From: Isurus oxyrinchus | Taxonomy: Eukaryota | Direction: 5' to 3' | DNA length: 64,000 nt | Assembly: GCA_026770705.1 (NCBI GenBank) | Contig: JANJGN010000546.1 | Span: 62,001 to 126,000, forward strand | Shown here: one piece after another, positions 21,738-64,000 of the stretch | Layout of the letters: each line of letters opens with the position of its first letter | Numbering within the stretch: the first letter of the stretch is position 1 | Made by a program: the position numbers and the translations under genes | Notes under the pieces: model-generated | What the model was told of the DNA's origin: nothing | The model's input: the letters and a program-made list of their open reading frames with translations, nothing else | Database searches by the model: none

Positions 21738-22106
21738 CAGAAACGTGAAGCTGGGTTACAGGGTAATAGTTATGGCTCGGACCATTGTCAAATTCTATTC
21801 TGAAATAATAAGTTCCTGCATCTTCCCGTCTGATGTTGTTTATAATCAGGGAACAGTCGCCATCTTTCAGGTCTCCAGACAGCCGGGTCCGATGGCGGAA
21901 CCGTGGTAACTCGTGACTGTGATCCTTGGAGTGAAAGGCAATGGGAGCCCAGGGAATCTGTTCCTCATTATTAAACCAGAGTCCACCTCGCGGTTGGCTT
22001 TCCAAATGTGATGGGTAACTGTAATGACATGGAATCTGTACACACGAACCTTCCTGCGCTGTCACCTCTCGGGGACTGTCACCTTTCCACTCTTGTGACA
22101 GTCCAA
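21738..22106 (-). CDS. Gene B V-set Ig exon with the essential Arg intact (GTYYFRIE)
   Basis: 369-nt open exon, canonical splice sites, Siglec Cys pattern. Confidence 0.92.
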
Positions 22107-25899: not shown

Positions 25900-28800
25900 A
25901 CGCAGTACTGAAGAGGTGCTGCACTGTCAGAGGGTCAGTACTGAGGGAGTGCTGCACTGTCAGAGGGTCAGTACTGAGGGAGTGCTGCACTGTCAGAGGG
26001 TCATTACTGAGGGAGTGCTGCACTGTCAGAGGGTCAGTACTGAGGGAGTGCTGCACTGTCAGAGGGTCAGTACTGAGGGAGTGCTGCACTGTCAGAGGGT
26101 CAGTACTGAGGGAGTGCTGCACTGTCAGAGGGTCAGTACTGAGGGAGTGCTGCACTGTCAGAGGGTCAGTACTGAGGGAGTGCTGCACTGTCAGAGGGTC
26201 AGTACTGAGGCAATGCTGCACTGTCAGAGGGTCAGTACTGAGGGAGTGCTGCACTGTCAGAGGGTCAGTACTGAGGGAGTGCTGCACTGTCGGAGGGTCA
26301 GTACTGAGGGAGTGCTGCACTGTCGGAGGGTCAGTACTGAGGGAGTGCTGCACTGTCAGAGGGTCAGTACTGAGGGAGTGCTGCACTGTCAGAGGGTCAG
26401 TACTGAGGGAGTGCTGCACTGTCAGAGGGTCAGTACTGAGGGAGTGCTGCACTGTCAGAGGGTCAGTACTGAGGGAGTGCTGCACTGTCAGAGGGTCAGT
26501 ACTGAGGGAGTGCTGCACTGTCAGAGGGTCAATACTGAGGGAGTGCTGCACTGTCAGAGGGTCAGTACTGAGGGAGTGCTGCACTGTCAGAGGGTCATTA
26601 CTGAGGGAGTGCTGCGCTGTCAGAGGGTCAGTACTGAGGGAGTGCTGCACTGTCAGAGGGTCAGTACTGAGGGAGTGCTGCACTGTCAGAGGGTCAGTAC
26701 TGAGGGAGTGCTGCACTGTCAGAGGGTCAGTACTGAGGGAGTGCTGCACTGTCAGAGGGTCAGTACTGAAGCAATGCTGCACTGTCAGAGGGTCAGTACT
26801 GAGGGAGTGCTGCACTGTCAGAGGGTCAGTACTGAGGGAGTGCTGTACTATCGGTGGGTCAGTACTGAGGGAGTGCTGCACTGCCAGAAGTTCAGTACTG
26901 AGGGAGTGTTGCACTATCGGTGGGTCAGTACTGAGGGAGTGCTGCACTGTCAGAGGGTCAGTACTGAGGGAGTGCTGCACTGTCAGAGGGTCAGTACTGA
27001 GGGAGTGCTGCACTGTCAGAGGGTCATTACAGAGGGAGTGCTGCACTGTCAGAGGGTCAGTACTGAGGGAGTGCTGCACTGTCAGAGGGTCAGTACTGAG
27101 GGAGTGCTGCACTGTCAGAGGGTCAGTACTGAGGGAGTGCTGCACTGTCAGAGGGTCAGTACTGAGGGAGTGCTGCACTGTCAGAGGGTCAGTACTGAAG
27201 CAATGCTGCACTGTCAGAGGGTCAGTACTGAGGGAGTGCTGCACTGTCAGAGGGTCAGTACTGAGGGAGTGCTGTACTATCGGTGGGTCAGTACTGAGGG
27301 AGTGCTGCACTGCCAGAAGTTCAGTAGTGAGGGAGTGTTGCACTATCGGTGGGTCAGTACTGAGGGAGTGCTGCACTGTCAGAGGGTCAGTACTGAGGGA
27401 GTGCTGCACTGTCAGAGGGTCAGTACTGAGGGAGTGCTGCACTGTCAGAGGGTCATTACTGAGGGAGTGCTGCACTGTCAGAGGGTCAGTACTGAGGGAG
27501 TGATGCACTGTCAGAGGGTCAGTACTGAGGGAGTGCTGCACTGTCAGAGGGTCAGTACTGAGGGAGTGCTGCACTGTCAGAGGGTCATTACTGAGGGAGT
27601 GCTGCACTGTCAGAGGGTCAGTACTGAGGGAGTGATGCACTGTCAGAGGGTCAGTACTGAGGGAGTGCTGCACTGTCAGAGGGTCAGTATTGAGGGAGTG
27701 CTGCACTGTCAGAGGGTCAGTATTGAGGGAGTGCTGCACTGTCAGAGGGTCAGTACTGAGGGAGTGCTGCACTGTCAGAGGGTCATTACTGAGGGAGTGC
27801 TGCACTGTCAGAGGGTCAGTACTGAGGGAGTGCTGCACTGTCAGAGGGTCAGTACTGAGGGAGTGTTGCACTGTCAGAGGGTCAGTACTGAGGGAGTGCT
27901 GCACTGTCAGAGGGTCAGTATTGAGGGAGTGCTGCACTGTCAGAGGGTCAGTACTGAAGCAATGCTGCACTGTCAGAGGGTCAGTACTGAGGGAGTGCTG
28001 CACTGTCAGAGGGTCAGTACTGAGGGAGTGCTGTACTATCGGTGGGTCAGTACTGAGGGAGTGCTGCACTGCCAGAAGTTCAGTACTGAGGGAGTGCTGC
28101 ACTGTCAGAGGGTCAGTACTGAGGGAGTGCTGCGAAGTCAGAGGGTCAGTACTGAAGCAATGCTGCACTGTCAAAGGGTCAATATTGAGGGAGTGCTGCA
28201 CTGTAAGAGGGTCAGTACTGAGGGAGTGCTGCACAGTAAGAGGGTCAGAATTGAGGGAGTGCTGCACTGTCAGAGGGTCAGAAGTGAGGGAGTGCTGCAC
28301 TGTCATAGGGTCAGTACTGAGTGAGTGCTGCACTGTCAGAGGGTCAGTACTGAGGGAGTGCTGCACTGTCAGTGAGTCAGTATTGAGGGAGTGCTGCACT
28401 GTCAGAGGGTCAGTATTGAGGGAGTGCTGCACTGCCAGAAGTTCAGTACTGAGGGAGTGCTGCACTGTCAGTGAGTCAGTATTGAGGCAGTGCTGCACTG
28501 TCAGAGGGTCAGTACTGAGGGATTGCTTCACTATCGGTGGGTCAGAACTGAAGGAGTGCTGCACTGTCAGTGAGTCAGTATTGAGGGAGTGCTGCACTGT
28601 CAGTGAGTCAGTATTGAGGGAGTGCTGCACTATCGGTGGGTCAGTACTGAGGGAGTGCTGCACTGTCAGAGGGTCAGTACTGAGGGAGTGCTGCACTGTC
28701 AGAGGGTCAGTACTGAAGCAATGCTGCACTGTCAGAGGGTCAGTACTGAGGGAGTGCTGCACTGCCAGAAGTTCAGTACTGAGGGAGTGTTGCACTATCG

Positions 28801-30712
28801 GTGGGTCAGTACTGAGGGAGTGCTGCACTGTCAGAGGGTCAGTACTGAGGGAGTGCTGCACTGTCAGAGGGTCAGTACTGATGGAGTGCTGCACTGTCAG
28901 AGGGTCATTACTGAGGGAGTGCTGCACTGTCAGAGGGTCAGTACTGAGGGAGTGCTGCACTGTCAGAGGGTCAGTACTGAGGGAGTGCTGCACTGTCAGA
29001 GGGTCAGTACTGAGGGAGTGCTGCACTGTCAGAGGGTCAGTACTGAGGGAGTGCTGCACTGTCAGAGGGTCAGTACTGAAGCAATGCTGCACTGTCAGAG
29101 GGTCAGTACTGAGGGAGTGCTGTACTATCGGTGGGTCAGTACTGAGGGAGTGCTGCACTGTCAGTGAGTCAGTATTGAGGGAGTGCTGCACTGTCAGAGG
29201 GTCAGTATTGAGGGAGTGCTGCACTGCCAGAAGTTCAGTACTGAGGGAGTGCTGCACTGTCAGTGAGTCAGTATTGAGGCAGTGCTGCACTGTCAGAGTG
29301 TCAGTACTGAGGGATTGCTTCACTATCGGTGGGTCAGAACTGAAGGAGTGCTGCACTGTCAGTGAGTCAGTATTGAGGGAGTGCTGCACTGTCAGAGGGT
29401 CAGTACTGAGGGAGTGCTGTACTGCCAGAAGTTCAGTACTGAGGGAGTGCTGCACTGTCAGAGAGTCAGTATTGATGGAGTGCTGCACTGTCAGAGGATC
29501 AGTACTGAAGCAATGCTGCACTGTCAGAGGGTCAGTTTTGAGGGAGTGCTGCACTGTCAGAGGGTCAGTACTGAGGGAGTGCTGCACTGTCAGAGGGTCA
29601 TTACTGAGGGAGTGCTGCACTGTCAGAGGGTCAGTACTGAGGGAGTGCTGCACTGTCAGAGGGTCAGTACTGAGGGAGTGCTGCACTGTCAGAGGGTCAG
29701 TACTGAGGGAGTGCTGCACTGTCAGAGGGTCAGTACTGAGGGAGTGCTGCACTGTCAGAGGGTCAGTACTGAAGCAATGCTGCACTGTCAGAGGGTCAGT
29801 ACTGAGGGAGTGCTGCACTGTCAGAGGGTCAGTACTGAGGGAGTGCTGTACTATCGGTGGGTCAGTACTGAGGGAGTGCTGCACTGCCAGAAGTTCAGTA
29901 CTGAGGGAGTGCTGCACTGTCAGAGGGTCAGTACTGAGGGAGTGCTGCACAGTAAGAGGGTCAGTACTGAAGAGGTGCTGCACTGTCAGAGGGTCAGTAC
30001 TGAAGCAATGCTGCACTGTCAGAGGGTCAGTATTGAGGGAGTGCTGCACTGTCAGAGGGTCAGTACTGAAGCAATGCTGCACTGTCAGAGGGTCAGTACT
30101 GAGGGAGTGCTGCATTGTCAGAGGGTCAGTACTGAGGGAGTGCTGCACTATCAGAGGGTCAGTACTGAGGGAGTGCTGCACTGTCAGAGGGTCAGTACTG
30201 AGGCAATGCTGCACTGTCAGTGGGTCAGTATTGAGGGAGTGATGCACTGTCATAGGGTCAGTACTGAGGGAGTGCTGAACTGTCATAGGTTCAGTACTGA
30301 GTGAGTGCTGCACTGTCAGAGGGTCAGTACTGAGAGGGTGCTGCACTGTCAGAGGGTCAATGCTGAGGGAGTGCTGCACTGTGGGAGAGACAGTACTGAG
30401 GGAGTGCTGCACTGTCGGAGGGTCAGTACTGAGGCAGAGCTGCACTGTCAGAGGGTCAGTACTGAGGGAGTGCTGTACTAATGGTGGGTCAGTACTGAGG
30501 GAGTGCTGCACTGCCAGAAGTTCAGTACTGAGCGAATGCTGCATTATCGGTGGGTCAGTACTGAGGGAGTGCTGCACTGTCAGAGGGTCAGTACTGAGGA
30601 AGTGTTGCACTGTCAGAGGGTCAGTACTGAGGGAGTGCTAAACTGTCAGAGGGTCAGTACTGAGGGAGTGCTGAACTGTCAGAGGGTCAGTACTGAGGGA
30701 GTGCTGGACTGT
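25900..30712. repeat. 4.8-kb 33-bp satellite array with higher-order periodicity
   Basis: About 145 units; variant monomers recur at 429-bp and 792-bp spacings. Confidence 0.97.
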
Positions 30713-38530: not shown

Positions 38531-38899
38531 TTGGACTGTCACAAGAGTGGAAAGGTGAAACTCCACGAGAGGTGACAGCGCAGGAAGGTTCGTGTGTACA
38601 GATTCCATGTCATTACAGTTATCCATCGTGTCTGGAAAACCAACCGCGAGGTGGAGTCTGGTTTAATAATGAGGAACAGATTCCCTGGGCTCCCATTGCC
38701 TTTCACTCCAAGGATCACAGTCACGAGTTACCACGGTTCCACCATCGGACCCGGCTGTCTGGAGACCTGAAAGATGGCGACTGTTCCCTGATTATAAACA
38801 ACATCAGACGGGAAGATGCAGGACCTTATTTTTTCAGAATAGAATTTGACAATGGTCCGAGCCATAACTATTACCCTGTAACCCAGCTTCACGTTTCTG
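38531..38899 (+). CDS. Gene C V-set Ig exon (open frame; GPYFFRIE)
   Basis: CCACAG acceptor, G|GTAAGT donor, 369 nt, close to the gene B V exon. Confidence 0.88.
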
Positions 38900-40214
38900 G
38901 TAAGTGCTGTGTTATAATTACTCAACAATTCACATTCAACACTCAATGGGAAATAACACAAACTGTGACATTTACATATTAACACAAAACACAGCTTATT
39001 ATAACAGACTGTCTGATTCTCAATAACCTGGTGATAGCTTCCAGTTCAGTCCTTAAGCAACCTCTAATACTCACTTTAATATCAATGATTAAATGTATTG
39101 ACTGTGTCCATCAATGCTATCAGGTTATCCACTCCCATTAGTCTCCCTAATGCTTTTTAAAAGTCTAACAATTTGACAAAAGAAGGATGTGCATTCCTAT
39201 TGCGCCTTACACCACCTCAGCAAACTTCAAATCACTTCACAGACAATGAAGAAATTCTTGAAGTATAGTCACTGTCTAACGTGGCAGTGAGTTTGTGCAC
39301 AGGAAGATCCCATAGAGAGCAATGGGATCACTGACCCAGATCTCTGAGAGAATGATGAGCCAGGGTTCCATGAGCTGTGGGCTGCTCCATCACCCACACC
39401 CCAGTGTTGGCAATTCAAGGGTCTGGGAGTGAAAGTGTATTCAGCTCAGTGACACATTCCCCACCAAGTTTGAAAATAGGAAAGTTGCTGCTGATTGTTG
39501 TTACCTCTCAGTTCCCATCTCATCCTTGGAAACCTGCTTTCAAAATACAAAAGCAAGTCTCGCATTTCCATAGCGCCTTTCACCACTTCAGGACGATACT
39601 AAATCAATTCACAGTCAATGAAGTGATTCTTGAAGCACACATTCTCCCCACTCTCTGGGTAAAGAAGTTTCTCCTGAATTCCCCATTGGATTTATTAGTG
39701 AGGATGTTATATTGTCAGCCTCTGGTTTTGTTCATTGTGAGGAGTGGAAACACTCTCCCCATGTCTACTCGATCAAAACCTTTCATTACTTCAAAGGTCA
39801 AATGAGGTCACCCCTCAACCTTCTCTGTTCAAGAGAACAGAGACCCAGCCTGTTCATCCTCTCCTGATAGGTAAAGCCTCACATTGCTGAGATCATCCTT
39901 GTGAAGCTTTTTACCACCCTCTCCAGTGTCTCCATATCCTTTTCCAAATGCTGAGTCTGTTCTCCCCGAGCTGTGAGCTGTTCCTCCACCCTCACCCAGT
40001 CTGGTCAAATCAAGGGTCACTGAGTGAGCGTGTATTAATCTGAGTGACAGAGATTCAACAAGTGTAAAAATAGACAATTCTTTAATGATCATTGTAACCT
40101 CTCAGTTCTGATATCATCCTTGTAAAAGTGCTTTCTCTTGTGGGACTGTGATTTCTATTTGAAATGATGCTTCACGTTATATTTCTCTAAAAGGATCCAT
40201 TCTCTGTCTGTTAG

Positions 40215-40511
40215 ATTTCACAGATAAACCCACGATATTCCCTGCTGAAATTATTGCAGGAAAGCGTGTGGATGTAAGCTGCACCTTCAACACAACGTGC
40301 AATGGAACAGCAGCACCTGTCTTAACCTGGGACACTCCCACTGACGTACCTGGATCAGTCTCAAACACTGTAACTCAGCATGGTGTCACTCTGACCTATA
40401 CTTCTGTTCTGACCCTGATCCCATCACTCAAACACCACGGACACACTCTCAGCTGCAGAGTGAGATATCCATCTGTTTCATCGGAGCGGACCCTCGTACT
40501 GACTGTGCTAT
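40215..40511 (+). CDS. Gene C C2-set Ig exon
   Basis: 297 nt, TTAG acceptor and GTAAGT donor, near-identical to the B copies. Confidence 0.88.
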
Positions 40512-48760: not shown

Positions 48761-49239
48761 CTGGGCAGTCCAGGTGCTTCTCCACCGAGGTTCAAATGAG
48801 CACAGTTTATATATTTTTTACTCTCAGTTACAAGGTAATGGTATTAGTTAGACACAGGCCACAGCACAATGACCCTCCGGTGGGCTGATAATTGTGTTCT
48901 TGTTCAGTAATTACAGGGCAGAGACTGGCTATTGTCCTTTTGAGACAGCAAAGAATCTATGTTTGTTCACTACAAAAGGTTTCCGGAGGCTGACTGGATG
49001 TGGTTCAAGGCCATCGGACGGTGTGAAATAACCTTCCCCATTTCTTGATTGAGTCACCCTGTGTCCTTGTGTGTGTGTCTCCCATTTCCTCATTGCAAAT
49101 TTACAGCTGAGCCCTTTGTACAGGTTTTTAGCTTTCACGTAAGGATGTGATTGTCTGTGTACGCTTTGTCACCCTAGCTGCTGGTCCTGGCTGGCTCTTT
49201 AAAATAAATCCAAATTTTCTGCACCTTCAATGAGATTCT

Positions 49240-50300
49240 CTCTTGTTGGAGCTGGTCATTGCCTGGCACTTGTGTGGCATGAATGTTACTTGTCACCTGT
49301 CAGCCCAAGCCTGGATGTTGTCCAGGTCTTGCTGCATTTGGACATAACTTGCTTCAGTATCTGAGGAGCCGTGAATGGTGCTGAACATTGTGCAAACATC
49401 AGCAAAAATCCCCAATTCTGACCTTATGATGGAAGGAAGGACATTGATGAAGCAGCTGAAGATGGTTGAGCCTAGGACACTACCCTGAGTAACTCCTGCA
49501 GTGATGTCCTGGAACTGAGATGATTGACCCCCAATAATCACAACCATCGTCCTTTGTGCTGGGTATGACTCCAAGCAGCAGAGAGTTTTCCCCCGATTCC
49601 CATTGACTCCAGTTTTGCTCGGGCTCCTTGATTTGCCACATTCAGTCAAATGCTGCCATGATGTCAAGGGCAGTCCCTCTCACCTCACCTCTGGAGTTCA
49701 GCTCATTTGTGCATGTTTGAACCAAGGCTGTAATGAGGCCAGGAGCTGAATGATCCTGGTGGAACACAAACTGAGCGTCAGTGAGCAGGTTCTTGGTAAG
49801 CAGGTGCTGCTTGCAAGCGCTGTTGATGACCCCTTCAATCACTTTAGTAATGATCAAGAATAGACTGCTGGGGAATTGGCTGGGTTGGATTTGTCCTGCT
49901 TTTTGTGTACAGGATGTACCCCATAGCCGGGTAGTTGCCAGTGTTGCAGCTGTACTAGAAAATTCCAGAAAAGCTTGGCTAGGGGCGCAGCAAGTTCTGG
50001 AGCACAAGTCTTCAGTACTATTGCCGGAATAATGTCAGGGTCTGGAGCATTTGCAATATCCAGTGCCTTCAGCCCTTCCTTGATGTCACGTGGAATTAAT
50101 CGAATTGGCTAAAGATTGGCATCTGTGATGCTGGGGACCTCAGGAGGAGGCCGAGATGGATCACCCACTCAGCACTTCTGGCTGAAGGTTGTTGCGCATG
50201 CTTCAGTCTTGTCTTTTGCACCGATGTGCTGGGCTCCTCCATCATTGAGGATGAGGATATTTGTGGAGACTCCTCCTCCAGTGAGTTGTTTAATTGTCCA
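49240..50300 (-). mobile_element. LINE reverse transcriptase fragment (CR1/L2 group)
   Basis: AGVTQGSVLGSTIFSCFIN, ALDIMAAFD, QQDLDNIQAWAD. Confidence 0.8.
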
Positions 50301-52149
50301 CGACTGGATGTGACATCTGGAATGCGAAGCTAGTCTCAGTAATGGTGACCATGAAACTAAGGCCAATTGTTGCAAAAACCCATCTGGGTCACTAATGCCC
50401 TTTGGGGAAGGAAACCTGCCGTCCTTACCCATTCTGGCCTACGTGTGACTCCTGACCCACAGCAATGTGGTTGACTCTTAACTGGCCCCTGAAATGGCCG
50501 AGCAAGCCACTGAGTTATATCAAAACCCGCCACAGACCAGTCAAACCAGGTGAACTGCAGCACTTCGAAAAGGCAGCTCAGCACCCCCTTCTCAAGGGGT
50601 CAGTCAGGAACAGGTAACAAACGCTGTCCACATCCCGTGAAAGAATTTTGGTAAAAAGGTAGCCGTGTATCACCACCCACGGCCAGCGCCAACCCCCCCA
50701 CCCCTACCTGATTGCACCAGTTTCAGATTATACCAGGTCAATGAACGGATAGAAACCCAAACCAATGAGATGAGCACAGAGAAGGATCAAGCCAGAGAGA
50801 GTTGGTGGGAAGAATTGGGAAAGCAACAAAAAAGGCAGAGCGGACACTAACACTATAACAAAGTAAAGACCAGAGGAGGAAGGAAGCAAGTGTGAAGAGG
50901 AATTGAGAGTAGAGCTGGTAGGCTGCTTGTCGAAGCCAAGGAACCTCCATAGGGCACACCCACAGTGCTTTTGGGGAGGGAGTTACATGATTTTGACCCA
51001 GGATCATCAAGTGTTGCGCTGGCAGACCCTTTAAAGTAAAGGGACCTTCACTACCTGCGCACCACCCCGCCCTACAAAGTTGTTGACCTGCTGAGTCCAC
51101 CTGTACAGGCAACCTCCAGACAGTTGGCTACAGAGGCCATTGCAGCTGCTGAATATGACTTCCAGTTTCAAAACCTTCATGAATGCAAGGATGGAGAATT
51201 CAGCAGGAATATTCCTGCACATCCTGTGGCAGATCCTGTAAATAAAAGGGACCTTCACTCACTCCCCAAAGCTGCTGACCTGCTGATTCACATCTACAGG
51301 CAACCTCCAAACAGTCGACTAGAGAAGACAATGCAGCTGCTGAATGTGACTCCTAGCATCAAACCCTTCACTCTGGAAAGAAGGAATCCAGAGCAATGGC
51401 CTCACTATGATACTTGACAGAAACTGATTTTAAATCTCATCTCTAAGTATTATTTTTCCTTTGTTTACATTTTAATCCCTGCACCTGATGGCTTTATCGC
51501 TTCAACTTAAATAACTTTCAGCAGGAGCCAGGTTCAAATGGAATGGACAAGCAGGCTCGGGGGGGCCAAATGGCCTACTCCTGCTTCTGTTTATTTATGT
51601 TGGTGTTGTTATGTAGTGGAACTAGAGAGGTTATAGCAGTTATGAGAGCATTAAGCAAACAGCAGCAAGAATTGAACACCTACGTTGTGGTTTATGAAAA
51701 GGTTTTCTACCTGGTCAACTGGTAAAATCTGTTGAAAGTGGGCTATCATGGCGTGTGCCCTTTGTGAGATATTTGTAACAACGTTCTCGATGTCGGAACA
51801 GCTTGCATTGAACAAAGCTGATCTTTACCCAGAACTTCAGAGGAAGGGGGGACAATTGTTCCCTGGTGTGGGGGGCATGGTGGGGGGGGAGGGTGAGGGG
51901 GAGACAAATAGCCTGAAATACCAAGCCAGACACTTTGTGAAGACAAAAGTTCTTTATTCATTTTTTTTCACAAATCATAATCTTTACAATTAAAGTCCCG
52001 ACAAGATAATGGTGAATCATGAACACATTGTCGGGGTGAATCTGTGCCCGGGAGTATAAAGCAGCAAAATCAGGAGCCCGCTTTACATCTCTCTGAATTT
52101 TAACTATCATTAACCCCAGTTACATCCATTCAAATGACTGTCATAAGAT

Positions 52150-52705
52150 TCCTCACACATTCACTTGCACACTCACACACCCACACCCACACAGACACAC
52201 TGACACACTCACTCATTCACATTGACACACACTGACACAGTCACACACACCCACACAGACACACTGACACACTCACTCATTCACATTGACACACACTGAC
52301 ACAGTCACACACACCCACACAGACACACTGACACTCTCACTCATTCACATTGACACACACTGACACAGTCACACACACCCACACAGACACACTGACATAC
52401 TCACTCATTCACATTGACACACACTGACACAGTCACACACACACACACACACGCTGACACAATCAAACACATTCACATTGACATGCACTGACAGTCACAC
52501 ATACACACACACACGCTGACACAATCACACACATTCACATTGACACACACATATTGACAGTCACACATACACACACACACTCACTCATAAAGACAGACAC
52601 AAACACAGCCACGCACACACTAACACATACTCACACACACTCACTCACGCACACACACACTGATACACTCAAACACTCACAGACACACACATACTCACAC
52701 ATAAA
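52150..52705. repeat. CA-rich compound microsatellite with ~62-bp units
   Basis: Repeated ACACAGACACACTGACACACTCACTCATTCACATTGAC block. Confidence 0.85.
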
Positions 52706-53195
52706 CAAAGAAGTTTACATTATAAACACTATAAACACAAGTTAGATTCAAAGTGCAGTATATTGGTACAAAAAATAGGTCATAATGAAAACTTCAATAT
52801 GAGATCGTCACTAATAAATCCAATGGGGATTTCAGGAGAAATCTCTTTACCCAGACAGTGGGGAGAATGTGGAACTCGCTCCCACAGAGAGTGGTCGAGG
52901 TGAATAGTGTCGATGTATTTAAGGGGAAGCTGGATAAACACACGAGGGAGAAATGAATAGAAGGATATGGTGATGGGGTGAGATGGAGAAGGGGTGGGCG
53001 GAGACTCGTGTGGATCAGAAACTCCAGCATGGAACAGATGGGCCAAATGGCTTCTTTACCTGCTGTAAAACGCAGGTAAAGTTTCAGTTGGAATTAATGA
53101 ACAGGGCCTGTGTGAAATAGATTGCTAAGCAGTAGATAAGGAGGGGAGAGGCTGTGGCATGGTGCAGGATGACCTTGCGTGAATGAGGCCAGGGT

Positions 53196-53312
53196 CTAAT
53201 ATCTACAGCAGAGACCACAAGTCTCATTTGGTTCTCTCCAATTACAGCAGTGACAGCAGAATCTGCAGAGCTGCTGTCTGCTCATTCTCTTCTGGCGCTG
53301 CAGCAAGGAGCC
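53196..53312 (-). CDS. HAMP: Hepcidin-like gene exon 3: GSLLQRQKR|MSRQQLCRFCCHCCNWREPNETCGLCCRY*
   Basis: CTGCTTTTCCAG acceptor, phase 0, RQKR furin site, C-x2-CC-x-CC-x8-C-x2-CC eight-cysteine hepcidin pattern. Confidence 0.9.
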   Translation of the reverse strand, partial: GSLLQRQKRMSRQQLCRFCCHCCNWREPNETCGLCCRY

Positions 53313-53419
53313 CTGGAAAAGCAGGAGCACAATAGGTGAGAACATTCCGGAAAGAAAGAAGGCACCGCCTCCCTTTGACTCTGGCATCATTTCAATCAGG
53401 CACGTCATTGGAAGGAGGA

Positions 53420-54100
53420 TGGCGCATTTCTATAGCGCCTTTCCCCTCCTCAGGATGGCCAAAAATGTTCAACAGCAGATGGAAGGACTTTTTCTGAAGT
53501 GAGCTCACCGCTGTAATGTAGGAAACGCAGCAGGCAATTCACGCACAGCAAGATCCCACAAACAGAAATGTGATAATGGCCCCGATTTTCAGTTTTTTAC
53601 CAATGTCAGTTGAGGGATAAATGTTTGCCCCAGGAAAGCGGACATAACTCCACCCCATCCAGCCCCCACCACCCCCTCCACACATACCCCCCAACTCCTG
53701 ACGCACTTCATTTAAATTGTGGCCATGGAATCCTCTACATCCATCTGAGAGGGCAGATGTTGTCTCAGTTTAACATCTCATCTGAAAGACAGCACCTTCA
53801 ACAGTGCAGCACCCCCTCAGTACTGACCCTCCGACTGTGCAGCACTCCCTCAGTACTGACCGTCTGACAATGCAGCACCCCCTCAGTACTGACCCTCCAA
53901 CAGTGCAGCACTCCCTCAGTACTGACCGTCTGACAATGCAGCACCCCCTCAGTACTGACCCTCCGACTGTGCAGTCCCCCGCCGGTACTGACCCTCTGAC
54001 AGTGCAGCACTCCAAGACTGACTGTCTGACAATGCAGCACCCCCTCAGTACTGACCCTCCGACTGTCCTGCCCCCCCGCCGGTACTGACCCTCCGACAGC
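53420..54100 (-). mobile_element. DeuSINE-like SINE whose end expands into the 33-bp satellite
   Basis: Minus strand reads ..GTGCTGCACTGTTGAAGGTGCTGTCTTTCAGATGAGATGTTAAACTGAG..CCCTCTCAGATGGATGTAG, resembling the Deu domain. Similar element at about 55790-56345. Confidence 0.65.
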
Positions 54101-55631
54101 TCGGTAATTTCTCAATTATGCCTGGTGGTCCTTTTAACTCAGAGCAGAGAGTCGCAGAGAATCGAGCAGACACCCTGAACTGACACTTGCAGTGCAAGTA
54201 CTGGGAGCGCGCTGGTCATTATCATGCTGCTGTCTGTGGGATCTTACTGTGCGCCAATGGCTGATTCTTTTCCCACAGTACATCAGTGACCTCACATGAA
54301 AGAAAAAAAGCACTTGATTGTCTGCGAAACACTTTGGGACGTCCTGATGTGTTGGAAGGCGCTAGAGAAATGCAAGTCCTCTTTGTCTTTCACTCGATCC
54401 TCTAAGGTGTCTGTTGATTAACCAGCCTCTCGGTGTTTGATGTAGGCCTGGTTATAAACAGTTAGAAGGATCAAATATCAAAAGTGCTTTGGCTGACAGT
54501 CAAACCGATTGTGCATTCGGAGAGATAAGATATGGTCTGCACACAATGACTCCAGTCTCTGGCACTGACTGCCGCCTGGGGTCTCCCTTCCACATAACAC
54601 TCACAACTTGCATTTACACAGCGCCTCTGACATTGCAAAATGTCCCAGCCCACATTACCGGAGCGTAAATCAGAGAGAAGTCTAACACTGAGTCACATAT
54701 GGAGATATTAGGGATAGGTGACCAAAAGCTTGGTCAAAGATGTCAGTTTTTAAGGAGCGTCTTAAAGGAGAGAGAGAGAGAGAGGCAGAGAGGTTAAGGG
54801 AGGGTATTCCGGAGCTCAGGGCCCCAGGCAGCTGAAGGCACGGCCACCAATGGTGGAGCGATGGGAATCAGGGGGACCCGGGAGATGCAGTAATGTCAGA
54901 GATTTTGGAGGAACATCGGGACCGGAGGAGGTGTTCTCCTGCTCCATATCTCTCTCTCTCTTCCTCTCATCCACTCCTCCTCTCCCTGTCTCTCTCTCCT
55001 ACTCTTCCTCTCAATTGCCCTCTCTCCCAATCTTTCTCTCCTCTCTCCCTTTTCCTGTCTCTCTCCCTCTCTCTCTCCCTGTCTCCTTCTCCCACTCTGT
55101 ATCTCTCCCTCTCTCTCACACTATTTTTGTACCTTTCGCTCACTCTGTAACTCTCCCTTTCCTGTTAATTTCTCTCTCTTGGACAATCTCTCTTCCCTTT
55201 TCACTTTCCCTCACTCTGCATCTCTTTAATTTCTCCCTCTGTCACTCTCTCCCACCTATGTTCTTTCCCTTTCACCCCTCCCCGTCCCACTCTCTGTCTC
55301 TCTCTTCCAATCCCTCCCTCCCCCATTCCATCCCTCTCTCCGACTCTCGACTCCCAGCCTCTCTTTAACCCACTCCCAGGCTGGATCAGTCTCCCTCTCA
55401 CTATCCCGGCGTGGGTTACATTTAAAATTCCTGTGGGGATATGTTCACTTCCTTGGAATTGTCTCTTCCCAGCTTTGCAAAAAAAGTTGGGTGGGGGGGG
55501 CTCGATTTCAAACCTGCCTCCTGAGTATAACCGAGACAGACTGCCACTGAAATCAGCTTGAAATCAGAAAACTTTCTGTGGAAGAAACGAGCAGGGAGAA
55601 ACCTTAAAATAAGGAATGAATTTCCACCTAC

Positions 55632-55688
55632 CGTGTCCGGGGAATCCACAGATTTCTCAATCGTCGAAGAACCTAAAGCAGTGTCAAC
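55632..55688 (-). CDS. HAMP: Hepcidin-like gene exon 2 (propeptide VDTALGSSTIEKSVDSPDT, 57 nt, phase 0-0)
   Basis: TTCTCTCTTTTTGCAG acceptor and ACG|GTAGGT donor; size and phase fit a HAMP exon 2. Confidence 0.75.
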
Positions 55689-56404
55689 CTGCAAAAAGAG
55701 AGAATTTATCAGGGAGAAAGTGAGAGGAGGATTGAGGGAGAGGGAGAGAGAGAGAGAGAGGTACAGGAGAGAGAGGGGGAGGAAGACAGACTTGCATTTC
55801 TCTAACGCCTTTCACCACATCCCAAAGCATTTCACAGCCACTGAAGGATGTTTTTGAAGTGCACTCACACTGTAGGAAATGTGGCAGCTGATTTGTGCAC
55901 AGCAAGATCCCACAAATAGCAATGTGATCATGGCCTAGATCATCTGTTTTTGGTGATGTTGGTTGAGGGATAAATATTGGTCCCAGGACACCGGGGAGAA
56001 CACCCCCTGCTCTTCCTCCAAATAGTGGCTGTGGGATCTTTCACACCCGCCCGAGAGGGCAGACGGGGGACTCAGTTTAATGTCTCATTCAACATTGTTG
56101 CGCTCCCTCAGTACTAACCCTTTGACACTGCAGCACTCCCTTAGTATTAACCCTTCGATAGTGCTGCGCTCCCTCAGTACTGTCCCTCCGTCAGTGCAGC
56201 TCTATTTCAGTACTAACCCTTCGACACAGCAGCACTCCCTCAGTACTGACCTCCGACAGTATAGCACTCCCTCAGTACTGTCCCTCCAATAGTGCAACTC
56301 TTCCACACTACTGACCCTCTGAGAGTGCAGCACTCCCTCAGCACGGAGCGTTGATCTACATTATGGGACTGAATTCCCTGGAGTGAGACTCAGACCAGTG
56401 ATTT

Positions 56405-57915
56405 AGGTAGGGTTGTGGGGGCTGGAGGAGGTTACAGAGATAGGGAGGGCTGTAGAGGCTGTAGGAGGTTACAGAGAAAGGGAGGGTTGTAAGGGCTGTA
56501 GGAAGTTACAGAGATAGGGAGGGTTGTAGAGGCTGTAGGAGGTTACAGAGATAGGGAGGGTTGTAGGGGCTGGAGGAGGTTACAGAAATAGGGAGGGCTG
56601 TAGAGGCTGTAGGAGGTTACAGAGATAGGGAGGGTTGTAAGGGCTGTAGGAAGTTACAGAGATAGGGAGGGTTGTAGAGGCTGTAGGAGGTTACAGAGAT
56701 GGGGGAGTTGTGGGGGCTGGAGGAGGTTACAGAGGTAGGGAGGTGTGTAGGGGCTGTAGGAGGTTACAGAGATGGGGTGGTTGTGGGGGCTGGAGGAGGT
56801 TACAGATGTAGGGAGGGTTGTAGAGGCTGGAGGAGGTTACCAAAATAGACACTGCTGTAGGGGCCACAGTAGGTTACAGAGATAGGGAGAGTTATAGTGT
56901 GGAGAGTTCAGGAGGATTGTAGGGGCTGGAGGAGGTTACAGTGATTGTGAGGGTTGTGGGGCCTGGAGGATTTTAAAGAGATAGGGAGGGTTGTAGGGTC
57001 TGGAGCAGGTTACAGAGATAGGGAGGGTTGTAGGGTCTGGAGCAGGTTACAGAGATAGGGAGGGTTGTAGGGTCTGGAGCAGGTTACAGAGATAGGGAGG
57101 GTTGTAGGGTCTGGAGGAGGTTACAGTGATCGTGAGTGTTGTGGGGCCTGGGGGAGGTTACAGAGATAGGGAGTGTTGTGGGGACTGTAGGAGGTTACAT
57201 AGATAGGGAGGGTTGTCGGGTCTGGAGGAGGTTACAGAGATAGGGAGGGTTATAGGGACTGGAGGAGGTTACAGAGATAGGGAGGGTTGTAGAGACTGTA
57301 GGATGTTACAGAGATAGGGATTGTTGTAGGGGCTGGAGGATGTTACAGAGATAGGGAGGGTTGTAGGGGCTGGAGGAGGTTACAGAGATAGGGAGGGTTG
57401 TAGGGGCTGGAGGAGGTTACAGAGATAGGGAGGGTTGTACGGGCTGGAGGAGGTTACAGAGATAGGGAGGGTTGTAGGGGCTGGAGGAGGTTACAGAGAT
57501 AGGGAGGGTTGTAAGTCCTGGTGGAGGTTACAGAGATAGGGATTGTTGTAGGGGCTGGAGGAGGTTACAGAGATAGGGAGGGTTGTAGCGGCTGGAGGAG
57601 GTTACAGAGATAGGGAGGGGTGTAGGGGCTGGAGGAGTTTACAGAGATAGGGAGGGTTGTACGGGCTGGAGGAGGTTACAGAGATAGGGAGGGTTGTAGG
57701 GGCTGGAGGAGGTTACAGAGATAGGGAGGGGTGTAGGGGCTGGAGGAGGTTACAGAGATAGGGAGGGTTGTAAGGCCTGGTGGAGGTTACAGAGATAGGG
57801 AGGGTTGTAGGGGCTGGAGGAGTTTACAGAGATAGGGAGGGTTGTAAGGCCTGGTGGAGGTTACAGAGATAGGGAGTGGCTGAGGAGGGATTGAAAACAA
57901 GAATGAGAATTTCAG
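56405..57915. repeat. 37-bp minisatellite array with an adjoining L2 ORF2 C-terminal stub, in hepcidin intron 1
   Basis: About 40 units; the stub translates on minus as EILILVFNPSSATPYLCNL. Confidence 0.92.
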
Positions 57916-58053
57916 GGGAAACGACAGAAGGAAATGATGTTAAATTCATAGAGGGCGACAATATTAAAGGCACGAACTTAATAATATCAAACTGCGGAAG
58001 AGACCAGTCTATCTGGGTGGTAGACGTAGAGTCATGTGCAAGAAACACCTCAC

Positions 58054-58170
58054 CCAGAGGGACATCTCTTAGCTTAACCTCGACAAGGAGAAGAAGTGAC
58101 TCAGCTGCAGGGAGAGCAGCAAAGTCAGAGTGAACAAGACAAGTCGCCATTTCATCTGGGAGCTTCCCAT
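58054..58170 (-). CDS. HAMP: Hepcidin-like gene exon 1, signal peptide MGSSQMKWRLVLFTLTLLLSLQLSHFFSLS; 3' boundary defective as assembled
   Basis: Basic/hydrophobic signal peptide below a TATAAG box. AG|GTTAAG donor (58079) is out of phase; TGG|GTGAGG donor (58054) is in phase but follows TAA at 58069-58071. Confidence 0.65.
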
Positions 58171-58241
58171 CTCTGCCTGTCTCTTCTGATCTTCTGGCTC
58201 TGCTTTGATGCTTTGGTTTGTAACTAGAGGAGCTTCCTGCT

Positions 58242-58431
58242 CTTATACCTGAAACACTTGAAGGGGACAGCCGCGGGTGGGTAGCTGTGTGGTATCACAC
58301 CCATTTCTGGATATTGCAGTGTCGATGTTCCCTGTCCCACTGGCCTGGGACCAGCAGTAAGGTCACTGGGACATTGACTGTCTGGCGCCGAGAACTATCA
58401 GTCCCTCCGCAACGCCCTTCACCTTGTGCAA
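58242..58431 (-). promoter_or_regulatory. Candidate hepcidin promoter: TATAAG (58242-58247), GGCGCC next to AGAC SMAD element (58380-58389), C/EBP-like TTGTGCAA (58424-58431)
   Basis: Motif matches only, in a non-repetitive island upstream of exon 1. Confidence 0.5.
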
Positions 58432-58849
58432 ATATGTGTTCATACTGATGCAACACAACATAGCAAAAACATAGGGGCTGGTTCTTATGTTGGCAAATCA
58501 GGTGAAGCGCACGCCCCCTAACCCCTTACTCCTCTCATTGCTCCTCCTTCCTGCCAGACACTTACTATTTTACAAATTGTGTGCGTTGCTTTTATTTCGG
58601 ACAAGGGGCCTCGAGGGGGAACTGATTTACGCTGAGGTTTAGGGGTTAACAGCCATGTCATGTGTTGATCGGTCAGTGTTTACCATGTGGAGACTGTCTG
58701 TCACCAGCTTTGTTAATGGTTTATCCAGGAACATTGAAGGGCATGAACGTTCTTGCTTTGTATGGAACAAGTCACCAACTGGGTTCAGTCATCGACTCAG
58801 ACTCACATCAACATAAACTGGCTTCTGACAGGTAAGTTTCTATTACATA

Positions 58850-59440
58850 AGGGTAGGAGGAGGCCATTTGGCCCCTCGAGCCTGCTCCACCATTCAAAGA
58901 GTTCATGGCTGATCTGCAAACTAGCCCCATATGGCTTTGTCCCATCTCCTTTAATACCTTTGGATAACAAAAATCTATCAGTCTCACAGGTTTAAAATGA
59001 ACAACTTGATCGTGCATCAGTTCCTGTTTGGGGAAGAGAGTTCCAAATTTCTCCCACCCTTTGTACTTCCTAATTTAATTCCTTTTTAGGCTCTGACCCC
59101 GAGTCCCAGACTCCCCCCAACCAGGGGAAATGGTTTCTCTTTATCGCCCCCGATCTGTTCCCCTTAATATCATGCGAACTTTCATCAAATCTCCTGCTTA
59201 ACATTCTAACTTCCAGGGAATACAAGCCGAGTTTGTGTTTAATCTCTCCTTGTGATTTAACCCTTGGAGTCCCGGTCTCATTCTGGTAAACTGACACTGC
59301 TCTCCCTCCGAGGTCAATATATCCTTCCTAAGGTGTGGGGCCCAGAATGTCTCACAGTGACTCCAGGTGTGGTCTAGCCAGGGCTTTATGTAGACTGAAG
59401 CATGACCTCTGCCCCCTTATATTCTAATCCGTGAGATAGA
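58850..59440 (-). mobile_element. CR1 LINE 3' fragment, degenerate
   Basis: Tail GGCCATTTGGCCCCTCGAGCCTG; peptides LGLYSLEVR and GLEYKGAEVML. Confidence 0.75.
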
Positions 59441-60039
59441 AAGGGCAGAGTTCCAGAATTGTTGTGTTTATTCGACAACAGAATAACAGAGGAAGGTTTC
59501 CTCTCTGCCCTCTTCAGCCCCACTGGGAAGGTCAGGATGAGAAGGTTGGGCTGGGTCCCCTGTACTGGACACTCGCTGAATCTTCCAATGATAGTTCTGG
59601 GCTGGATTTCAAAACGCATAGACAAGGATTCAGTGTTCCATCACATTCTGCCTTTGTCTCTTTTCCTCTCGTTCTCTTTCTCTTCCATCCTCTCTCTCTA
59701 TCTATCTATCTTTCTCCTCATTCTCTCCTGCTTCATCTCTATCACTTTCTTTCTACTTCTTTGTGTGTCTCTGTCTGTCTCTCTCTCTCACTCTTTCTTT
59801 CCTTGTCCTTATCTCATTCAGTGTCTCCCTCTTTCTCTCTCTCTCTCTCTCTCTAAATGTGACCCTCTCTAACAGTTTGGCCCAGTACTCTTATTTCCCT
59901 GTTTTACTGGTGTTCCATTTGAAGGTATACAAGACCAGATCAGACCAGAATGTTTATTTTCCAGTGTTTACTGTGTTTTTTTCATTCTGGGTGTCTCTCG
60001 ACTCTGTCTGTCCCTCTCTGTCCTTTTATTTCATTCTTT

Positions 60040-60375
60040 CATGTGATGTGGACATCACTGCCTAGGCCAGCATTTATTGCCCAACCCTAATTGCCCTTGT
60101 TCAGAGGCCACTTTTTAAAAGTGAACCACATTGCTGTGGGTCTGGAGTCACATGTTGGCCAGACCAGGTAAGGACAGCAGATTTCCCTCCCTAAAGGGCA
60201 TTTGTGACCCAAATACAAGAATCAGCAATGGTTTCCGGGTCATCATCGGACTTTTAATTCCAGGTTTTTATTGAATTGAAATTCCACCAACTGCTGTGGT
60301 GAGATTCTAACCAGGGTCCCAGGAGCATTACGCTGGGTCTCTGGATTACTGGTCCAGTGAAAATACCATCAGGCC
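60040..60375 (-). mobile_element. tRNA-derived SINE; related pieces near 47600-47810 and 50320-50650
   Basis: B-box-like GGTTAGAATCTC on minus (GGTTCAAATCCC in the 47660 copy) and shared body sequence. Confidence 0.6.
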
Positions 60376-60524
60376 AACACCTCCCCACTCTTCCCTTCCA
60401 CCATCTTTCACACTTGTTCTGTCTCTCTCTCACTCTCCTTCTCTCTTCTCCCTCTCTCAGTCTCTGTCTGTCTCTCAATCTCTCTATCGCTCTCTCTCTC
60501 CCTGTCGCTCTCTCTCTGACTGTC

Positions 60525-61180
60525 TCCCTCCCTATATCTGTAACCTCCTCTCTCTGTCCCTTTCCTCCAGCCCCTACAACCCTCCCTATCTCTGTAACCT
60601 CCACCAGCCCCTACAATCCTCCCCATCTCTGTAACCTCCTCCACCTCCCACAACCCTCCCTATATCTGTAACCTCCTCCACAAGCCCATACAATCCTCCC
60701 TATCCCTGTAACAACCTCCAGCCCGACAACACCCCTATACATGTCACCTCCTCTAGCCACTGTAACCCTAATAATCTCCCAAGCCTCCACCAGCCTTGAC
60801 AATCCTGTCCATCTCTGTAACATCCTCCAACCACCACAACCCTCCCTATTTCTCTAATCTCTTCCAGTCCCTACAACCCTCCCTATCTCTACAACCTGCT
60901 CCACCCCCTGCAACTCGCCCTATCTCTGTGTCATCCTCCAGCCCCTACAACCCTCCCTATACCTGTAACCTCCTCCAGCCCCTACAACCCTCCCTATCTC
61001 TGGAACAGCTTCCAGCAGCTACAACCCTCCCTATCTCTGTAACCTCCTCCAGCCCCTACAACACTCCTTATCTCTGTAACCTCCTCCAGCCCCTACAACC
61101 CTCCTTATCTCTGTAACCTCCTCCAGCCCCTGTAACCCTCCCCATCTCTGTAACCTCCTCCAGCCCCTGTAACCTTCCCC
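60525..61180. repeat. 37-bp minisatellite array (reverse orientation)
   Basis: CCCTACAACCCTCCCTATCTCTGTAACCTCCTCCAG units. Confidence 0.88.
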
Positions 61181-61764
61181 ATCTCTTGAAGGGTTCTCAA
61201 AATTTCCAACTGTCAAGGAACCCTGGGTTGGTGAGCGTGACCCCTGACCTCTCCTAGTGCAATTTAGTTAGGGTTTGGGGGTGGGACAAGGGTAAGGGCA
61301 TTAGTAGCGTGATTCTCCCTCGTTATGCCGTGTGTTCCCCATTCTTAACTCAGTGTACTTTCTAAGTCTGTATAATCTCAGTGTCATCCTAATGTTAGAA
61401 GTTCATTTGTGACTTCAGTAAACTCAGTTTTTGTCTTGCACCAAAACCAGTTGTCTGCTGCACTTTGTGACAAGCCCCGAATAAGTCCAAGGTCTAGAAC
61501 CCAGGGAGTGGGAGCGATTCAGACGGCTCAGAAGTCGCAGGTGAAGCTGACACACACCACCACACCCTACAAGGGGCTGAATGGCCTCCTCCTGTTCCTG
61601 TGTAACGGGCATCAGTGGCTGAATGGCCTCCTCCTGTTCCTGTATAACGGACATAAGTGGCAGAATGGCCTCCTCTTGTTCCTGTGTAACGGACATAAGT
61701 GGCAGAATGGCCTCCTCCTGTTCCTGTGTAACAGGCTCAAGGGGCTGAATGGCCTCCTTCTGCA

Positions 61765-63130
61765 CTGTAAACTTGTTGTGATACTGTAACTGCCTCTTTG
61801 GTTTCATTCAGCTGAATCTTCAGCTCTTCAGTCTCTTCCTTGTATCTCTTGCCTTCCTCCTGGAACATTGGACATGGTTGGGTCTTCCCTGCCAACTGTT
61901 TCTTCAGTTTGCTCAGAGCGGCACAGAATTCGCTTTCTTTCTCTTCAGGATTTTCCAGTGGAACCAACTCTGACCTGAGGGACACTTGCAGCCTGTGAGG
62001 ATGCTTCAATTCTTCAAACTCATTCCGAGATACACTCTCATATTCCCCCAGCAACTCAGCAACTCCTCCAGTGAAACATTTCAGAGCAGCTGAGCTTGGT
62101 TTTCTGGAACCAGTCTCGGCCCAGAAGACTAGGGCCCTCACCTGTCGCTATGATCACTGGAAGCTGGGCTGTCTGCTGCCTGTAGGACACAGGTACTGGG
62201 ATGAGGTCCTTTCCCTGTATGGATTCTCCAGTGTGTGTCTTCAGCTGATCCATTGTTGGCTCTAAATTCAGCGTCTGGGTTCCTTCATTTAGCTGTTTAA
62301 ATGTGGGCTCTTCCACCACTGTGTCTGAGGCTCCCGTATCTGCCCCATTACTAGTGGCTGCCCATTCACTTGGGTTGTGATGGTTATAGGTTCAGTTTTT
62401 ACCACTGTGACATTGGACAGGGAATAGACATCGGTATCAGCAGCTTCAGGCTCTGTGATATTATTCACTTCCATCATGTTGGTGCACTGCCTGATGGGCT
62501 GTCTCGATTTCACCCTGCATTGCTTTATTACCTGCCCCTTTCTTGTGGCAGTGATGGCATTCTGCCCCCTTGAACCTGCAGGTGTCCAGTACGTGCTCAA
62601 TGCCCCCCACATCGAGAACAGGCCAACTTCGGAGTTGCTGCTGAAATACTCCCACGAAGCCTTTTAGTTTCTGGAGCGGCAGAGACTGTCTCTCGCTTGG
62701 CGGCTGTCTCTCTCTCTCTCTCTCCAGTTTGAGCCTCACGCCCGGTGGTTGGTTCCTGTCCCAGCTGAGGACTGGCGCCATGTTGTACATCCTGTAAATC
62801 CCGCCAGTCTCTCCCAGCACTTTCCATGCCTGGCGCTATTTCCATAGTGCGCTTCAAATCGATGTCGGCTTCTGCGAGTAAACGGCTCTGAATGGCGTTG
62901 GGGTGAACGACACAAACCAATCGGCCCCGCAACATGTCATTGAGTGTGTCTCCGAGGTCCCAGTGCTCAGTCACCTGCTTCCACTTCATTGTATAGGTTG
63001 CGATGGACTCTCCCTGGGCCCTTACTCTGGAGTTAAACTTAAACCTCTGCATTATTACCCACGGCTTCAGCTGAAAATACATCTTCATGAGGTCGACTAA
63101 TTGGTGAAAAGATTTAGAATTGGGTGCAAT
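61765..63130 (-). mobile_element. Ty3/Gypsy gag-protease remnant
   Basis: IMQRFKFNSRVR, DMLRGRLVC, CSRCGGH knuckle, GEGPSLLGRDW; same family as 33120-36490. Confidence 0.85.
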
Positions 63131-63415
63131 ACACGTCACTGTCTTCAGCTCTGAGACTGTCAATCCTCACCGAACAATTCTTCCCTTCCAAGTCGCCGAT
63201 TATTTTAGCACGTCCCACGAATGTGGCCATCCCATAATTGGGATCTTTGGTGTATGTGACGGTATATTTCCATCTATACCAATATTTATACCAAGCTCCG
63301 TGCAGTGCTGTGTAAGAGTGGGAAGGAAAGTCAAAGCTACACGGAATAACCACACAAGAGCTGCTGATGGCCCTCAGAGGCAGCGCCTTCATAGACCATC
63401 CCTCTGACGTCACTC
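63130..63415 (-). pseudogene. Gene D: MAG/Siglec-like V-set exon truncated at the F strand
   Basis: TTTCAG acceptor, then SCVVIPCSFDFP..HGAWY..FVGRAKIIGDLEGKNCSVRI..DSDVY, then direct fusion to gag sequence and TAA at 63114-63116. Confidence 0.82.
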
Positions 63416-63479
63416 CTGAAAGGCAACAAGGGAAGAGACAGGACATCAAAAAGCAGAATATTACTTCAATGGAGAGAGG

Positions 63480-63925
63480 CAGCAGAATGCGGTACAGAGG
63501 GATCTGGGTGTCCTTGTACATGAATCACAGAAAGTCAGCATTCAGGAACAGCACGGAATGATGAAGGCAAGTGGAATGTTGGCCTTTATTGCAAAAGGAT
63601 GGAGTATAAAAGGAGGGAAGTCTTGCAACAGCTGCACAGGGCGTTGGTGAGATTGTATCAGGAGCAGTGTGTACAGTTCTGGTCTCCTTACTTAGGGAGG
63701 GATAGACTCTGCATTGGAGGCAGCTCAGAGGAGGATCACTGGGCTGATTCCCGGGATGAAGGGGGTTTGTCTTATGAGGAAATGTTGAGCAGGTTGGGCC
63801 CTGTATCCATTGGAGTTTAGAAGAATGAGAGGTGATCTTATTGAAACATATAAGATTCTGAGGTGGTGGGGGGTTTGACAGGGTGGATGCTGAGGGGATG
63901 TTACCCCTTGTGGGGGAATCCTGTG
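63480..63925 (+). mobile_element. CR1 LINE 3' ORF2 fragment
   Basis: MEYKRREVLQQLHRALVR..CVQFWSPYL. Confidence 0.85.
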
Positions 63926-64000
63926 AAGCAATAAGGATGTTTTACTGCATTAAAGGTGCTATATAAATGCACTGTCATTCCTATTGAAACAAGCTCTCTG

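Follow-up and report, generated by a model that had tools for sequence, protein, structure and literature searches.

The window analysed here is a stretch of 64,000 nt from the shark Isurus oxyrinchus (positions 62001–126000 of contig C546, G000:C546, in a 4.98-Gb assembly). On its minus strand is a hepcidin-like gene whose first exon does not appear to end in a usable splice donor. An earlier note on this DNA took the defect for either a consensus error or a null allele, and the question is whether either description fits the locus. Positions given below are those of the window; C34, C52, and the like are other contigs of the same assembly, and L-numbers (e.g., L053) are labels of individual loci that were read.

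The window gene and its first donor

The bases at the end of exon 1, and their phases, were confirmed on the minus strand as the earlier note wrote them: TCG AGG TTA AGC TAA at 58083–58069, followed by GAG ATG TCC CTC TGG and by GTGAGG from 58053. Counting from the ATG at 58155, codon 25 is TCG (58083) and codon 26 is AGG (58080–58078), and the TAA (58071–58069) follows in frame after TTA AGC. The GT at 58078 is in phase 2, and the phase-0 GT at 58053 is located past the TAA. The coding part of exon 1 (58078..58170, minus strand) has two candidate starts, ATG 58155 and an in-frame ATG five codons earlier (58170), as in the named shark homologues; its 3' end is at 58078, where RNA-like contigs leave the genome into exon 2. 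The leader is hydrophobic and signal-peptide-like, and in sequence comparison nearly identical to that of P0001, the Cetorhinus maximus hepcidin LOC144671611. A TATA box (TATAAG; 58242..58247, minus strand) lies 92 bases ahead of ATG 58155, the same place as in two conventional hepcidin genes on C34.

The remainder of the gene has a hepcidin-type architecture, with three exons and phase-0 introns, the first of which begins with TT in the window. Intron 1 contains a 37-bp minisatellite of about 40 units (56404..57876). Exon 2 (55632..55688, minus strand; 57 bases, phase 0/0) has an intact AG acceptor and GT donor, and is followed by an intron 2 with a 33-bp minisatellite (53795..54100). The coding part of exon 3 (53196..53312, minus strand), in phase 0 and intact, encodes an RQKR furin-type site and then a 29-residue mature peptide with eight cysteines (C-CC-CC-C-CC), an eight-residue loop, and an N-E-T sequon, ending at a TAG (53198–53196); an AATAAA at 51953..51958 (minus strand) is the likely poly(A) signal. 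The hepcidin-like identity assigned earlier holds, exon 3 scoring 32.5 bits against the Pfam Hepcidin profile (PF06446; cut-off 27, E 1.1e-7). With the same exon as query, protein searches found no homologue (proteins of 71–2000 aa; 0 matches at E 0.001), and a PDB search found one weak hepcidin match only (E 4.4), negatives of little weight for so short a query. Judged by profile, cysteine pattern, and exon layout, the window gene is a member of the hepcidin family, with signal cleavage and secretion predicted from its leader. Elsewhere in the window (25903–30712), a 33-bp minisatellite of about 146 units yields long spurious open frames of up to 1580 codons, and its unit is scattered through the window.

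The +1 substitution across the array

The window junction is one of many. An exact 36-mer across it has 51 matches in the assembly, 26 of them on the forward and 25 on the reverse strand (reversed-pattern control, 0), and one further copy with the same TT has a nearby change (L053), for a total of 52. The intact-donor pattern gave 81 matches (control, 3): 75 array copies, two on C34, and four on the large contigs C3, C4, C15, and C24, which are absent from the listed exon-1 anchors and were dropped as chance. A 24-base exon-1 anchor occurs 130 times, with 129 of these classified (127 in the array and the two C34 genes). An exon-1 search likewise gave 130 candidates, and 39 of the 40 scored have the top score, with 100% identity over 231 bases. 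The 127 classified, near-identical hepcidin-like copies are on 15 contigs totaling 13.9 Mb, 39 of them (13 TT) on C52 alone. They fall into two classes, 75 copies with AGG|GTAAGC (GT copies) and 52 with AGG|TTAAGC (TT copies, the window included), the latter making up 41% of the array.

Codon 26 is AGG (Arg) in all 121 of the 127 classified copies that were read (six GT copies, like the one unclassified anchor, were left out), and is followed by GT in 69 and by TT in 52. The lesion is a single substitution, T for G at the +1 position of the intron 1 donor (58077, minus strand). The repair suggested earlier, one G deleted and one T inserted to restore TCG GAG|GTAAGC, has no counterpart in the 121 array copies or the two C34 genes, and the Glu that it would place at the end of exon 1 is unmatched in all three named shark homologues; both C34 genes and these homologues have Lys there. 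An exon 1 ending at 58054, with the TAA as a nonsense codon, was also tried and rejected, as GT copies carry the same TAA and splice at 58078.

Comparison with sister copies indicates that the TAA (58071), the ATG (58065), and the cryptic donor TGG|GTGAGG (58053), all within 58048..58071 (minus strand), are ordinary intron-1 bases. Of the 69 GT copies, 67 have all three, and both C34 genes have the TAA and ATG. It is extremely improbable that TT copies use the 58053 donor and, by reinitiation of translation at ATG 58065, yield a hepcidin that lacks a signal peptide and stays in the cytosol. The frame from this ATG is open for 61 residues and reaches all eight cysteines, and 58053 scores best among nearby GTs by a rough donor-frequency matrix; against this, the elements are inherited with the intron, reinitiation three bases past a frame of 28–33 codons is inefficient, and the cytosol would not allow four disulfides to form.

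A consensus or polishing error at 58077 is very improbable as well. The site is within a GGG run, and polishing across near-identical paralogues can spread a base, which could have happened to this T. However, 52 copies, spread over 14 contigs and both orientations, carry the T; the change is a substitution and not an indel; 75 copies of the same context keep the G; and the TT state is linked to neighboring variants at several sites within 2 kb (r2 0.13–0.30, p down to 1e-8). As far as an assembly can show, the T is real sequence, and the consensus error proposed in the earlier note does not account for it.

The TT class is clustered yet mosaic. In a tree of the 111 copies having exon 2, built with the diagnostic base omitted, the TT and GT labels change 21 times, vs 35 with shuffled labels (none of 500 shuffles giving so few), and well-supported branches force at least three TT/GT changes, in a tree whose bootstrap had not settled. 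The two classes are interspersed on C52 and C71 (runs test, p 0.39 and 0.20), no common exonic marker tells them apart, and TT is scarcely associated with exon-3 coding sites (r2 at most 0.04). TT copies have the longer intron 1 (median 2168, vs 1836 in GT copies). In an array of 94–98% identity, mosaic haplotypes may partly be assembly chimeras.

Between ATG−90 and ATG+125, TT is the only common variant, all others having a minor count of at most 4 among the 121 copies. Exon-3 variants are freely shared by both classes, and the mature region is variable, with 13 of 87 sites varying (count at least 3) vs 0 of 135 in exons 1–2 (66 copies; p 3e-6). These points could be taken as signs that selection maintains TT copies, either because they hold down the total dose or because they stock mature-peptide variants for recombination into working copies. 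Such selection is quite improbable: one early mutation in an expanding array could reach 40% without it, exon-3 deletions are about equally common and hit both classes alike, and the amplification may be driven by the Siglec-like exons counted below. By itself, a donor mutation such as this one, in copies of a redundant gene, is nothing unusual.

Splicing and decay of the TT copies

In three of four runs, all from one sample that is represented by contigs only and whose RNA status is a guess, 12, 1, and 2 contigs pass in frame from the end of exon 1 (58078) into a family-type exon 2; the summed depth over exon 1 in the RNA-like contigs of this sample is above 100,000. In run X1, 154 of 201 aligned contigs are at least 99% alike, so that the animal sampled probably belongs to this species or to one closely related. 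Once correctly spliced, a transcript of a TT copy would be indistinguishable from that of a GT copy, and the contigs fit either class as their source. No loose end at 58076 or 58054 was found among the matches listed, which comprise 18 of the 29 rows for loose ends and 24 of the 311 pieces; among the same matches, intron 1 is entered by low-depth C34-type contigs only. Coming from one sample and from contigs, which drop rare forms, this carries no weight as evidence on TT-type products.

The substitution creates a new GT one base upstream of the native junction (GAG|GTTAAG, with its GT at 58078; 58070..58081, minus strand). A cut at this −1 position would lose one base and lead to a stop four codons into exon 2, 30 aa from ATG 58155, and donors past the TAA would end the frame at 28 residues. 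The stop after a −1 cut would fall 41 bases ahead of the last exon junction, near enough that the transcript may escape nonsense-mediated decay. No in-frame product was predicted from the GT donors tried with the main exon-2 acceptor; two weak donors would give in-frame products when paired with a second acceptor at 55672. Pairing with U1 gives seven Watson-Crick matches in the −1 register, with one T bulged, and five plus a wobble in the +1 register.

Donors of this kind are used elsewhere. TT ranks second among the non-canonical donors in use, and non-canonical donors occur in highly expressed genes (PMC6280755). ETV1 has a constitutive TT-AG intron (PMC4176328), so some correct splicing at TT is possible. 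The window site, with G at −1 and TTAAG at +1 to +5, has the pattern of working TT donors, which it shares, together with the competition between −1 and +1, with the human FANCC c.165+1G>T mutant and the ETV1 and FBXO9 TT-AG introns (PMC6280755, PMC4176328). According to section 6 of PMC6280755, sites of the form "..G TTAAG" are cut at −1 or +1, and accurate cutting at +1 required a second GT at +5/+6; in the human reporter work described there, sites without it were spliced inaccurately or gave way to cryptic sites. The shark site lacks this second GT, having GC at +5/+6 with C at +6, and differs further from the human cases in being carried by 52 paralogues and not by one allele.

Splicing at the native position could still be sufficient for normal peptide in TT copies, with output merely lowered. 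The match to the FBXO9, ETV1, and FANCC-mutant core would agree with this, as would the deep coverage of the family in RNA-like runs, given that non-canonical donors are found in highly expressed genes, and the lack of excess decay in TT copies (below). It is nevertheless unlikely, given the missing second GT, the poorer U1 pairing of the +1 register, and a family donor already weaker than that of the C34 genes (4.67 vs 7.07, by the rough donor-frequency matrix); in human genes, splicing is upset by the majority of GT>TT changes (PMC6280755).

Predicted from their donor sequence, TT copies are quite likely null or weak. U1 would still bind the damaged site; most transcripts would be cut a base too early (giving a frameshift and a stop in exon 2) or at the cryptic donor past the TAA, and a minority would be spliced correctly at TT. 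The earlier note was right that the exon 1 donor is damaged and that the window copy is probably non-productive. "Null allele" is misleading, since what carries the lesion is a class of paralogues, and both C34 genes look intact, as do 41 of the 121 array copies read, which appear to be coding throughout and encode 21 different peptides.

Apart from the donor, TT copies have not decayed more than their sisters. Exon 3 was found in 36 of the 52 TT and 44 of the 69 GT copies, and apart from the donor the gene is intact in 29 of the 52 and 41 of the 69 (p 0.71). No extra decay of TT copies of the kind that marks a duplicated pseudogene was found among the 121 copies, and exons 2 and 3 of the window gene are intact. 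Three cysteine-changing alleles occur in two TT copies, and two exon-3 frameshifts in GT copies. Equal decay in the two classes agrees no less with residual function than with a recent origin or with exchange. An exact exon-3 anchor has 86 matches on array contigs (89, less two on C34 and one on C7), so that missing exon 3s are mostly absent and not just out of range. Many copies without exon 3 lose homology at the end of the 33-bp intron-2 minisatellite (~53795). Exon-3 copies without a listed exon-1 anchor just upstream, at C52:3596503, C71:1355365, C150:160626, C150:766584, and C323:427688, are orphan halves of rearranged genes.

The array, its probable parent locus, and its peptides

The two conventional hepcidin genes of C34 are 31 kb apart, and read AAG|GTAAGC, with a Lys codon before exon 2. 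In exon 1 and promoter, C34 and array are 94–95% identical (DNA), and window positions 51518–60476 match the C34 locus in pieces at 87–95%. The C34 exon 3 is 92% identical to P0001. Siglec-like V and C2 exons lie 14–64 kb to one side of these genes, and an FFAR-like gene, from a Pfam scan of 59 of 215 long frames in the surroundings, ~57 kb to the other; no LSR-family match (PF05624) was found on C34. The human HAMP neighborhood includes Siglec (MAG/CD22) and FFAR genes, and the same kinds of neighbor are found at the C34 locus, with Siglec-like exons in the window also. The amplified array likely derives from the C34 locus, as far as these sequence matches indicate. A 100-N gap lies on C34 just past the Siglec-like exons; that the array belongs in it is a guess. 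Four LSR-family exon matches are located elsewhere (C18 at 76.62 and 76.71 Mb, C452, and C1620), the two on small contigs being equal in score and possibly further duplications. Upstream of the hepcidin genes, the C34 copies (L016–L019) have a minisatellite of ~2.6–3.3 kb between the TATA region and a block that in the window (58284–58400) is directly upstream, so promoter spacing differs between array and parent. In the window this block holds a BMP-response-like GGCGCC motif, 234 bases before ATG 58155.

Siglec-like exons are spread through the window, with V-set exons at 2098–2457, 15100–15417, and 21733–22083 (all minus strand) and 38554–38904 (plus strand), and C2-set exons at 13512–13766 and 20601–20855 (minus strand) and 40238–40492 (plus strand). 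The window gene itself is in a duplicated block (48761..64000), pieces of which are 93–96% identical to two C52 copies; overall, duplicated blocks are 92–99% identical. Within this block is a sialoadhesin/MAG-like V-set exon (63120..63410, minus strand) with a stop just after its second Cys; in the 240 kb of C34 that were read, nothing closely matches it. On C52, in which hepcidin copies alternate with the same Siglec-like exons as in the window, 12 V-like and seven C2 exons were found beside two hepcidin exon-1 copies in 160 kb, and Siglec-like exons occur across array contigs C52, C71, C121, C150, and others. One V-set exon gave 834 first-look candidates, and the 40 of these that were scored are all on array contigs, at 97–100% identity. 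The V exons diverge (61–93% aa), and the C2 exons are 96–100% alike. The Siglec-like exons, rather than hepcidin, may drive the amplification, with the hepcidin copies as passengers. V exon 2098–2457 has Thr where the other V exons have Arg; the V-set Arg of Siglecs is essential for sialic-acid binding. Copies on C52 are often head to head, 20–33 kb apart (263893/295035, 557688/587993, 783053/803030, and others), which suggests inverted duplication units.

The 74 complete genes all differ, four pairs only reaching 99.5%, so the copy count does not reflect a simple double assembly of alleles; it may be inflated by diverged haplotypes if both were assembled. The array appears to be a case of birth-and-death turnover, in which the loss of one copy would cost little. 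The birth-and-death immune clusters of mammals (CD33-related Siglecs, beta-defensins) similarly have many recent copies, mosaic haplotypes, and many damaged members; the shark array differs in that its amplified block has taken in an iron-hormone gene that is normally single-copy.

Overall, the window gene is one of 127 hepcidin-like copies, shares its +1 G>T with 51 others, and likely gives little or no normal peptide. A block of hepcidin and Siglec-like genes from the C34 locus would have been amplified recently. The G>T, on the simplest reading, would have arisen once, in one copy, and then, through unequal crossing-over or gene conversion, increased in number and come to stand on many different backgrounds, and a damaged copy would cost little beside dozens of intact sisters and two conventional genes.

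The mature peptide has changed faster than the rest of the gene. Between the window and C34b, 29 of 87 mature-region bases differ vs 19 of 342 in the other exons and UTRs (p 7e-11), with both dN (0.43) and dS (0.48) raised in the mature region relative to C34, over few silent sites. Within the array, positive selection was not supported (22 amino-acid-changing alleles vs 1 silent, p 0.09; piN 0.048, piS 0.012). There are 34 mature-region haplotypes among 71 full-length exon-3 copies, and cysteines are conserved apart from three single alleles. In both GT and TT copies (L033, L049, L070, L074, L106, L108, L137), the mature peptide may lack three residues at its start, through an in-frame deletion. 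The array peptides share with the conventional shark hepcidins (the C34 genes, P0001, and the Scyliorhinus canicula hepcidin-2-like P0002 and P0003) the leader, an exon 1 ending in a basic residue before exon 2, the furin site (RQKR in 58 of 80 exon-3 copies, RQNR in 18), and the eight cysteines. They differ in having Arg, where P0001–P0003 and C34 have Lys, before exon 2, in the mature-region divergence just given, in an N-E-T sequon (79 of 80 array peptides), and in the loss of the S-H-L-S start, kept in the C34 genes and present in none of the 80. The eight-residue loop is also found in C34, P0001, and P0002, and is not special to the array.

The N-terminal iron-regulatory motif of type 1 hepcidin, Q-S/I-H-L/I-S/A-L (PMC8502971), to which the S-H-L-S of the C34 genes corresponds, is likewise in none of the 80 array peptides. 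Net charge is +2 in 40 of 71, vs +5 in the parent; as hepcidin antimicrobial activity has been tied to arginines (PMC6240063), this argues against plain cationic killing. By analogy with teleost hamp2, the array peptide likely has a non-iron, secreted immune role. Three multi-exon ferroportin-family loci (PF06963) are present in the assembly (C14:56.75–56.78 Mb, C14:74.67–74.73 Mb, and C3:138.65–138.68 Mb) and are possible targets for divergent hepcidins.

The closest parallel is with the hamp2 arrays of teleosts (Larimichthys crocea, PMC6240063; seabream, PMC11043163; seahorse, PMC9073008), which are also local multiplications beside a conserved iron-type gene, in multiple diverse copies with a fast-changing mature peptide and without the iron-regulatory N-terminus. 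Copy number is very different, 127 in the shark array vs 3–5 listed for several teleosts (PMC6240063) and names running from hamp2.1 to 2.14 in seabream (PMC11043163). In addition, the shark array is co-amplified with Siglec-like exons, its peptide charge is below the parent's, and about two-thirds of its copies look damaged. One of these accounts confines hampII to teleosts (PMC9073008). Because of its 94–95% DNA identity to the genome's own C34 genes, the shark array falls by sequence outside the teleost hamp2 clade, with a probable independent origin from the shark's own gene. Hepcidin is described as single-copy in most mammals (PMC8502971) and has been detected in nurse shark plasma (PMC3832898, PMC9207270). 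No shark hepcidin array was found in a search of literature listings with few subscription journals among its sources.

A more ambitious reading is that a shark lineage, independently of teleosts, built up ~127 hepcidin-derived peptide genes, evolving fast and expressed at a high level, within a 14-Mb immune array that also contains Siglec-like receptors; recombination would have spread a leaky donor change to 41% of the copies, where it acts as dose control, and those copies would still feed mature-peptide variants into working genes. Taken as a whole this is doubtful.

The finding of value is the array around the lesion rather than the lesion. For annotation, it matters that the small contigs bearing the array are not part of the long scaffolds and that some two-thirds of its copies are not straightforward genes. 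Its 52 natural +1 G>T donors, beside 75 matched controls, make a clean system for TT donors outside mammals. At ~127 copies, it would be an independent and much larger case than the multi-copy hepcidins of teleosts, and it allows a direct test of whether the split of a non-iron hepcidin recurs in vertebrates.
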